DNA from: a virus
Taxonomy: Duplodnaviria > Caudoviricetes
Virus record (IMG/VR): IMGVR_UViG_3300034111_000674
Location: 10,243-74,242 of that record
Direction: 5' to 3' (one strand)
Length of the DNA stretch: 64,000 nucleotides
The notes below the pieces were generated by a model, which searched no databases, was not told the origin of the DNA, and saw nothing but the letters and a program-made list of their open reading frames with translations. Both the position numbers and the translations under genes were made by a program. Position 1 is the stretch's first letter; each line of letters starts with the position of its first letter. Positions 62,779 through 64,000 of the stretch are shown here, in pieces.

Positions 62779-62807
62779 ATTATAAGTGTTTGGGTTGTGT
62801 TGTTCAA
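62779..62807 (-). promoter_or_regulatory. sigma70 promoter
   Basis: TTGAAC-N17-TATAAT. Confidence 0.8.
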
Positions 62808-62821
62808 ATGCAAAATTTTTG

Positions 62822-63023
62822 ACCATAACCAATCATACTCACAGCTGTTTAAGAACATTTAGTCCCCAGGATCGTCTAGGGCATTCAGTCCTCTCATACC
62901 TTTGGCATCGCCTCAAAAGTTCTAAACCCACCACAGGTTGTCGAGGAACTCGGTAGAGATAGGTATCACCCAGTGAGTCAGGCTGCTGGTTGGGCACTTT
63001 GCTCTCAGATGATTGGTTATGGT
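62822..63023 (-). ncRNA. ~200-nt rod-shaped RNA with central bubble (6S-like architecture, unassigned)
   Basis: Perfect 15-bp terminal inverted repeat plus nested helices whose G-U pairs favour the - strand. Confidence 0.5.
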
Positions 63024-63095
63024 GCCGCTTGAGGGACTCGAACTCTCGACCTACCGCTTACAAGGCGGTTGCTCTACCAACTGAGCTAAAGCGGC
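63020..63095 (-). tRNA. tRNA-Thr (anticodon UGU), CCA encoded
   Basis: GCCGCTT/AAGCGGC-A-CCA acceptor; anticodon arm ACCGC-CTTGTAA-GCGGT; TTCGAGT T-loop; 76 nt. Confidence 0.97.
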
Positions 63096-63100
63096 AAGTG

Positions 63101-63168
63101 GCACGACAGCCCATCCTGTTTTCGTCGTGCGCGGAGGCGGGTTCCTCAAGGGGGTGTACAGGCCCGCC
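63101..63168 (-). ncRNA. GC-rich two-hairpin/pseudoknot element immediately 5' of tRNA-Thr
   Basis: Stems GGCGGG/CCCGCC and GCACGAC/GTCGTGC; cross-pair CCTGT/ACAGG. Confidence 0.4.
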
Positions 63169-63226
63169 AATACAAGCACTAGTACTTTGAATACAGAGTA
63201 CCAGTCTTCTTTATCAGTGAAGTGCT

Positions 63227-63416
63227 AGTATTTTATAAACACACCGGGGACCACGGTGCGCACCGTACGGCCTGACCCGCGGAAGGTGTCTCGAGAATAC
63301 TCCGCATATATGTATTAAGTGGCGGTGTGCTTATAGAATACTATTTTATTAAGACACCGCACTTACAGAGGTAACGCGTACCACGGCTAGATCTCGCCTC
63401 AATGTCTTAATAAAAT
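63227..63416. repeat. Alternating-orientation ~17-bp motif (TATTYTATWAAG(C)ACACC) bracketing two small RNA-like inserts
   Basis: Copies at 63227-63245(+), 63324-63342(-), 63342-63358(+), 63403-63416(-); degenerate copy 63285-63301(-). Confidence 0.8.
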
Positions 63417-63741
63417 GCCACATGATTTGTAACAAGGACATGTGGCCAAACCCTGGCTCAGCTAGTTTTTTAGGCTGCTAGAGCGTAAACGCTGTCGTTT
63501 GCATTTAAGTTTTTGCTGTTTCGGATTGAGAAACCCCAACCCTACGGCTTTCACATTGCCGGGTTGCCGTCTTCACTATCTCACGCTGTCGAAACCACAT
63601 CCGGCCCATCAAAAACATATTAGTACACAGTTTTCCCATTTCAGGTTTTAGAGTACCTTATCGGGCTAATATGCTTTTGGTGGACCGGGGCGGGAATGAT
63701 CCGCCGTCCAACATGCCTTCGATCTGACAGAATTACAACCA
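63417..63741 (-). ncRNA. ssrA: tmRNA, circularly permuted two-piece gene: acceptor piece ~63741-63678, intervening segment 63677-63608, coding piece 63607-~63417
   Basis: Acceptor stem GGGCCGG/CCGGTCC-A-CCA with G3-U70; GGTTTCGAC 5' motif; GAC + T-arm; tag ORF 63502-63470 ANDSVYALAA*; the CCA end lies upstream of the 5' end. Confidence 0.93.
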
Positions 63742-63746
63742 TATTC

Positions 63747-63845
63747 TACTACAATCGGGACTCGAACCCGTATGCGACCCGTTCTTCCTGGCCTGTCTAC
63801 TCTGTATCCGGATTTAGGAGTAAACTATCGGTGTTCCAGTGTAGT
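63747..63845 (-). ncRNA. tRNA-like element (non-canonical anticodon arm, long variable region, no CCA)
   Basis: ACTACAC/TTGTAGT-A acceptor-like stem; GAAC/GTTT D-like stem; CGGG-TTCGAGT-CCCG T-arm. Confidence 0.5.
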
Positions 63846-63861
63846 CGGCTAAGTAGTGGTA

Positions 63862-63999
63862 CTAGATTTCTTCGGTGACAACACCATCCATCTTGTCTTC
63901 AAAAAACTGACGGTACCGGTGGGTTAAATCGTACTGACGTTGCAGTGCTTCAACCTGTGCCAGGAACGTAGAACGGGCTGCTTCATAGGCCAGTGCAAA
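63862..63999 (-). CDS. Hypothetical protein, C-terminal fragment (5' outside window)
   Basis: Open frame FALAYEAARSTFLAQVEALQRQYDLTHRYRQFFEDKMDGVVTEEI*. Confidence 0.6.
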   Translation of the reverse strand, partial: FALAYEAARSTFLAQVEALQRQYDLTHRYRQFFEDKMDGVVTEEI

Positions 64000-64000
64000 A

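Follow-up and report, generated by a model that had tools for sequence, protein, structure and literature searches.

A functional phage-encoded tmRNA of permuted, beta-like form very probably closes the tRNA cluster in an uncultured siphophage of T5-like character, a reading to which we assign a probability of roughly 85%. The gene is located in a stretch of 64,000 nucleotides (hereafter the window) that makes up the 3′ 64 kb of a linear, 74,242-base IMG/VR record of about 70% completeness, and some 230 nt separate it from the end of that record. It belongs to the phage, is conserved among the relatives of the phage and is constrained both in its structure and in the peptide that it encodes.

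Identity and layout of the gene

ARAGORN called a permuted tmRNA at 63379-63770 on the minus strand, and the Rfam model tmRNA_permuted (RF04321) matched over its full length (1-213) with 117.4 bits (E=2.9e-22, cut-off 47). Among the beta, alpha and cyano subtype models, the beta model alone passed its cut-off (beta_tmRNA, RF01850: 100 bits, E=3.3e-29, cut-off 84), with alpha_tmRNA (39.2 bits versus 50) and cyano_tmRNA (34.8 bits versus 70) remaining below theirs. The tmRNA match is beyond chance. As the RF01850 score is far under the approximately 280 bits reached by bacterial beta-type genes, we class the window tmRNA as a divergent beta-like member of the family, and betaproteobacterial descent goes beyond this assignment.

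The first-pass annotation, made from the letters alone, had proposed a phage-encoded two-piece tmRNA that uses host SmpB, and had named ARAGORN and the Rfam two-piece models as ways of checking it. Both returned the gene, ARAGORN with the very tag given in that annotation, ANDSVYALAA with its LAA ending. The identification is further backed by the synteny and covariation described below, and the coordinates assigned to the minus-strand pieces all agreed with our re-reading of the sequence.

The order of the parts is permuted: the T-arm, the acceptor 3′ strand and the CCA precede the acceptor 5′ strand, as they do in all 27 parsed relatives (Table 1). The 3′ hairpin has an 8-bp stem (63446-63439 with 63424-63417) and a 14-nt loop, and is followed by a T-rich tail. 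Cofolding and the RF01850 alignment indicate that the loop is able to pair with 63457-63451, giving a pseudoknot as in the beta model. This hairpin is the probable 3′ end of the coding piece.

Table 1. Positions of the tmRNA parts, neighbouring genes and ORFs (window coordinates unless a contig locus is named)
Feature	Position	Strand	Basis or remark
Large ORF, 2413 aa	475-7716	+	tape-measure families
Large ORF, 1625 aa	9484-14361	+	tail-fibre families
Large ORF, 2792 aa	17976-26354	+	matches only a family of unknown function
Large ORF, 2061 aa	28514-34699	+	tail module
tRNA-Thr(UGU)	63020-63095	-	ARAGORN- and Rfam-supported; follows the tmRNA in every relative
Coding piece, ~197 nt	63411-63607	-	sequence, Rfam alignment, covariation; 5′ G at 63607
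3′ hairpin	63417-63446	-	RF01850 alignment, cofold, partial covariation
Tag frame (resume codon GCA, peptide ANDSVYALAA, stop TAA)	63470-63502	-	ARAGORN
Clade-invariant 26-mer in coding piece	63560-63535	-	
Distal-helix strand, coding piece	63567-63562	-	covariation-supported; pairs with 63740-63735
P2a strand, coding piece	63588-63582	-	covariation-supported; pairs with 63715-63709
D-loop analogue	63600-63589	-	
Acceptor 5′ strand	63607-63601	-	
Intervening sequence, 70 nt	63608-63677	-	predicted to be removed from the mature RNA
Acceptor piece, 63 nt	63678-63740	-	sequence, Rfam alignment, covariation in 19 distinct copies
Encoded CCA	63680-63678	-	
Discriminator A73	63681	-	
Acceptor 3′ strand	63688-63682	-	
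T-arm	63705-63689	-	T-loop 63700-63694, ATCATTC
P2a strand, acceptor piece	63715-63709	-	
Distal-helix strand, acceptor piece	63740-63735	-	
183-aa HNH endonuclease in intervening sequence	L124:601-1152	-	phrog_2255, E=8e-28
123-aa ORF in intervening sequence	L106:10238-10609	-	no function assigned
Small ORF in intervening sequence	L102:12686-12879	-	
Small ORF in intervening sequence	L119:10086-10236	-	

Conservation of structure and tag peptide

We parsed 27 complete tmRNA genes from the clade, 19 of which are distinct, and judged covariation on the 19. The acceptor stem of the window gene is paired at 7/7 positions and carries G3.U70 and a discriminator A, as the first-pass annotation had it. 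Nine acceptor-stem sequences occur among the distinct copies, each paired 7/7; positions 4-7 covary, and G1-C72, G2-C71, G3.U70 and A73 are invariant (19/19). Double-sided changes are likewise frequent in the T-arm and in the P2a (7 bp) and distal (6 bp) helices. Cofolding of the single window sequence recovered the acceptor stem, the T-arm and the distal helix but shifted the register of P2a, so that P2a rests on covariation. Three helices had originally been drawn between the two pieces, of which P2a and the distal helix are upheld by covariation. The middle one, GATAG/CTGTC, was dropped: it pairs in the window, yet the closest relatives have GATAG opposite a non-complementary CCTTC, and across the 19 distinct copies it was neither recovered in the consensus fold nor accompanied by covariation.

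The tag is constrained as a peptide. Its 14 variants in the clade, that of the window included, all fit the pattern AN[DE]xx[FY]xL[AV]A, and the codons that spell one and the same peptide vary from contig to contig, a sign that selection acts on the peptide.

The T-loop of the window gene is unusual. Its sequence, ATCATTC, occurs otherwise only in four close relatives; elsewhere in the clade the loop reads TTCGAxT or, in two cases, TGCGAAT, and in bacterial beta-type genes it is TTCGAxT in 76/76 and ATCATTC in 0/76. The loop departs from the canonical TTCRAnT; the 5-bp stem of the T-arm is present and covaries. In the window subclade, positions 54 and 58 have been exchanged together (A54/U58), and to judge from the sequences this joint exchange may keep the tertiary pair; the ATCATTC loop might also impair tertiary folding or modification. 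Because the subclade has three different tags while its helices remain paired, selection on the gene has apparently continued there. A separate peculiarity concerns L106/L107/L112/L113 and L111, in which the T-loop TGCGAAT (with G55) accompanies a D-loop analogue that has AG instead of GG and is one base shorter, a possible case of tertiary covariation between the two loops.

The segment between the two pieces varies in length and sequence and keeps a common design. In the window, its ends form a 12-bp closing stem that is followed by a single-stranded TGAT of 4 nt and then by G1, and the segment folds at −16.9 kcal/mol (z=−3.1). Within the clade, segments of 5 to 577 nt occur. Fifteen distinct intervening sequences of 65-194 nt were folded whole, and 14 of these have a closing stem of 12-17 bp despite their unrelated sequence; for the two longest (382 and 577 nt), folding was confined to the joined ends, which pair as well. 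The closing stem starts right after the CCA and stops 4 nt before G1. Between the window and its relative L004, the ligase is 99% identical and the sequence just upstream of the tmRNA is the same, whereas the intervening segments (70 versus 92 nt) do not align. The hairpins of bacterial beta-type genes follow the same design in miniature (median 28 nt, range 4-46 nt), and the phage versions are therefore expansions of the hairpin loop. Four of the expanded segments, in L124, L106, L102 and L119, contain ORFs around which the closing stem is preserved, and the stop codon of the HNH endonuclease ORF in L124 falls within the acceptor 5′ strand; the window segment has no ORF inside. A tRNA-Ala and a repetitive element are the only inserts in permuted intervening sequences that the tmRNA database paper names (PMC11915505).

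Encoding of the CCA differs among these genes. ACCA is encoded in 25 of the 27 parsed phage-clade genes, and the bacterial beta-type genes, most of which lack the full CCA, have ACCC in 48 cases, ACCT in 17 and ACCA in 11. L110 and L116 (from the same contigs as L007 and L008) encode no CCA: TAA comes directly after the discriminator A, and with only 5 nt before G1 a short loop caps the acceptor stem. Maturation would require RNase P cleavage, trimming and CCA addition. In all other parts the gene is intact, as is its tag, ANDNNFALAA. Overall, the comparative evidence that the gene is selected as a working tmRNA, keeping its alanine identity, its tag and a putative processing hairpin, is unusually clean.

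Phage genomes that carry the gene

The minus-strand half of the window encodes RNR, SbcCD, PolA, a DnaB-type helicase, a second helicase and an NAD ligase, and the plus-strand half encodes tail-fibre-like proteins along with the 2413-aa tape-measure protein. With the polymerases of Demerecviridae (My1, Gary and the T5-like EC105), PolA shares about 49% identity, and the order helicase-primase-polymerase-small ORF-helicase is common to the window and this family. On the basis of these two similarities, 'T5-like' is a fair description at a distance, and we regard the record as a distant relative, not a member, of Demerecviridae. Of the initial label 'lytic T5-like', the second part thus stands in this distant sense; 'lytic' follows only from the lack of a tyrosine integrase, which searches of the record and of four relatives did not reveal. 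The first-pass annotation had also seen no SmpB gene in the window, and neither the full 74-kb record nor any of five relatives, including two that are ≥90% complete, yielded one.

The ligase served as an anchor for the locus. Eleven IMG/VR contigs encode it at 68-99% identity, and a permuted tmRNA lies at the same position in 7/7 ligase-anchored relatives that extend far enough upstream. The gene order in the relatives is a large tRNA array (15 tRNA genes upstream in L004), the tmRNA and tRNA-Thr(UGU). In L004, L009 and L010, it occupies an interior position in contigs of 50-97 kb, with phage tRNAs and phage genes on its flanks. The 26-mer of the coding piece was found in 29 viral contigs and in 0 of 185,579 bacterial species genomes.

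The RNA is also found on a second genomic backbone. A T5-like PolA at 74-77% identity is encoded in five carrier contigs and was not found in five others, which CheckV rates as fragments of 20-36% completeness. While the T5-like tmRNA loci share 4-9 proteins with the 64-kb window, a second group of eight tmRNA loci of 10-14 kb (L122, L108, L114, L106, L107, L112, L127 and L102) shares none. Neighbouring genes in this group include those for an ATPase, an HNH endonuclease, a nucleotide-sugar epimerase and a radical SAM protein; a PHROGs search of this backbone returned accessory functions only and no identification. The second group is probably a different, larger phage type. The same RNA, including the 26-mer, is thus present in at least two genomic contexts, which suggests exchange between phages, a tentative reading because the contigs are fragmentary.

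Two-piece tmRNAs of phages are already known as a kind, and the novelty implied by the first-pass annotation does not hold. A two-piece tmRNA has been described in phage Melnitz, and the same study counts 402 tmRNA-bearing phage genomes, whose tmRNAs fall into 133 unique forms, 53 of which are permuted (Buchholz et al. 2022, PMC9004378). Its Table S1 includes phages of Caulobacter, Synechococcus, Pelagibacter, Roseobacter and Stenotrophomonas, Pseudomonas phage SM1, phages of Xanthomonas and others, but no Demerecviridae (PMC9004378). A tmRNA database of 2025 holds 79 phage sequences. We found no experimental characterisation of a phage two-piece tmRNA in the literature searched. What the window and its relatives add is the occurrence of this trait in T5-like phages and the presence of their RNA in another phage backbone as well.

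Melnitz and the pelagimyophages resemble the window phage in that a lytic phage without SmpB carries a two-piece ssrA, but Melnitz is a T4-like myophage whose tmRNA is of the alphaproteobacterial type and is accompanied by a glutamine riboswitch (PMC9004378), whereas no riboswitch was detected in the window. The Bxz1-group mycobacteriophages, Bacillus phage G and DS6A likewise have an ssrA-type RNA that relies on host SmpB; these RNAs, however, have the non-permuted order or no tag frame (PMC4131195). The mobile HNH gene in L124, which lies in the part of the tmRNA gene that would be lost on maturation, can be likened to the homing endonucleases located in the T-loop intron of intron-form tmRNA genes, with the difference that the L124 ORF lies inside the intervening hairpin of a permuted gene and not in a self-splicing intron (PMC11915505).

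A blastn search of 50,697 cultured phage records with the window tmRNA gave no match. With the more canonical L009 copy, weak matches to the acceptor piece led to four cultured carriers of beta-like permuted tmRNAs, namely Pseudomonas phage SM1 (KU682439.2, our L130), Stenotrophomonas phages DLP_6 (KU245542.1, L131) and QDWS359 (PQ569993.1, L132) and Xanthomonas phage Rb1 (ON331942.1, L133). Like the window gene, these match both models (RF01850 69-111 bits, RF04321 103-137 bits), adjoin phage tRNA genes and have the same acceptor-piece layout, an intervening closing stem, a TGAT leader and tags of the AND...AA type. They differ from it in belonging to other phage families, none a Demerecviridae relative, in their longer tags of 12-14 residues and in lacking the 26-mer, and they are about 61% identical to the window in the tRNA-like/P2 region. 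No permuted tmRNA was found in three cultured Demerecviridae. In GenBank, the tmRNAs of all four carriers are either unannotated or overlaid by 'hypothetical protein' CDSs; phage annotation pipelines evidently miss permuted tmRNAs in these ways, and SM1, DLP_6, QDWS359 and Rb1 are cultured phages in which the unannotated gene is amenable to knockout.

The bacterial counterparts (RF01850; Dechloromonas, Azonexus and Thauera of the Rhodocyclales, plus Cupriavidus) share with the window gene the permuted order, the 7-bp acceptor stem with G3.U70/A73, P2 helices between the pieces, an ANDxxFAxAA-type tag, a 3′ pseudoknot/hairpin and an intervening hairpin that runs from just after the CCA position to about 4 nt before G1. 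Identity in the tRNA-like/P2 region is about 64%. Unlike the bacterial genes, the window gene contains the clade 26-mer, lacks the terminal GC-rich hairpin, encodes the full CCA where most of them have ACCC or ACCT, has the T-loop ATCATTC and has an intervening segment of 70 nt (5-577 nt in its relatives) as compared to 4-46 nt. A broader pattern search led to Rhodocyclales and Cupriavidus at only 77-81% identity over stretches of about 55 nt, and an order-level survey gave strong permuted matches, without taxonomic assignment, in 4 of 151 genomes; one genome in this tally is unpublished (G030), and none of our conclusions depends on it. Pseudomonas, Stenotrophomonas and Xanthomonas, which the cultured carriers infect, have one-piece tmRNAs, and the two-piece form is not a safe clue to the host.

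Proposed function and alternative explanations

From these features we infer the following path of maturation and action. The acceptor piece, the hairpin-closed intervening segment and the coding piece would be transcribed as one precursor together with their neighbours. Host RNase P would cut at G1 (63607), host 3′ processing would expose the encoded CCA (63678), and the two pieces would be held together by the acceptor stem and the P2 helices. Assuming compatibility with the host proteins, AlaRS would charge the RNA by way of G3.U70 and A73, and SmpB and EF-Tu would bring it to stalled ribosomes, where translation would resume at GCA and append ANDSVYALAA, a ClpXP-type degron. The likely benefit to the phage is that ribosome rescue would continue, and truncated proteins would be recycled, after host transcription has been shut off and while mRNA is being broken down. 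The roles proposed for the Melnitz tmRNA are upkeep of the hijacked translation machinery or amino acid recycling (PMC9004378); why a lytic phage carries a ribosome-rescue RNA is a question that the catalogued two-piece phage tmRNAs raise in general.

An RNA with these features could instead act as a decoy or competitor that titrates host SmpB or blocks host trans-translation. The lack of a phage SmpB agrees with such a role, as does the inhibition of tmRNA by the TLD-only molecule of mycobacteriophage DS6A (PMC4131195), and a T-loop that no bacterial beta-type gene has (0/76) would fit an RNA that only binds. A decoy, however, needs neither a tag frame nor alanine identity, whereas the frame, the resume codon, the stop and the LAA-type ending are kept with synonymous changes through 14 tag variants, three different tags occur inside the ATCATTC subclade itself, and G3.U70 and A73 never vary. 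We therefore give this explanation little credence. The same odd T-loop, together with the low RF01850 score relative to bacterial genes and the relative type that has a 5-nt intervening segment and no encoded CCA, could be taken as signs of a decaying, non-functional relic that travels with the tRNA cluster. Such decay is highly improbable in view of compensatory changes in four helices, peptide-level selection on the tag, the presence of the gene in every relative examined and its retention in two unrelated phage backbones.

The position of the gene so close to the end of the record, and the fact that tmRNA genes are common integration sites (PMC4383910), would also be expected if the sequence were host DNA, that is, a bacterial ssrA at a prophage junction or at a mis-assembled contig end. 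The syntenic copies internal to the 50-97 kb contigs L004, L009 and L010, among phage tRNAs and genes, exclude a host junction or an end-of-contig chimera, and the missing integrase, the confinement of the 26-mer to viral contigs and the low identity to bacterial copies speak against it too; we consider the chance of a host origin of this DNA to be negligible. A working tmRNA that belongs to the phage accounts for these observations best.

Apart from the extension to T5-like phages, the main comparative interest of the gene lies in its expandable, ORF-accepting hairpin, the paired T-loop swap and the apparent mobility between backbones. These could be brought together by supposing a lineage of two-piece tmRNAs that is held in the phage pool, moves between backbones and is not simply a spare of the host RNA. 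The hairpin would then be a landing pad for mobile ORFs, the HNH endonuclease among them, and the RNA would be kept to counter host responses, namely ribosome stalling or the cutting of mRNA, tRNA or tmRNA, much as is thought for phage tRNA arrays. The A54/U58 swap would be an adaptation, e.g. one that evades a host factor specific for the canonical loop. As a whole, this proposal is speculative and rather unlikely to be right.

A scan of 62800-64000 found no sigma-70-like promoter, and expression of the window gene would therefore depend on read-through from upstream, whereas in one relative a perfect TTGACA-17-TATAAT promoter lies directly upstream of the tmRNA. In the window subclade, the tmRNA abuts either the upstream ORF or an inserted element. 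The element in the window (63744-63850, minus strand) consists of about 100 nt between the stop of the upstream ORF and the tmRNA, contains a near-perfect T-arm, GGGTTCGAGTCCC, and, apart from the window, was found only in the contigs that L002/L117 and L004/L128 come from. Neither relaxed ARAGORN nor Rfam at E<=1 called a tRNA there, and the element, with z=−0.67, folds no better than shuffled versions of itself; a decayed tRNA is one possibility. In L121 and L124, perfect AT-rich inverted repeats of 14-15 bp, about 60 nt upstream of the acceptor piece, bracket short GC-richer inserts. These repeats resemble the hairpin 'cassettes' that lie between the tmRNA and tRNA-Thr in the window (63169-63416), and they may be processing sites in a polycistronic tRNA/tmRNA transcript.
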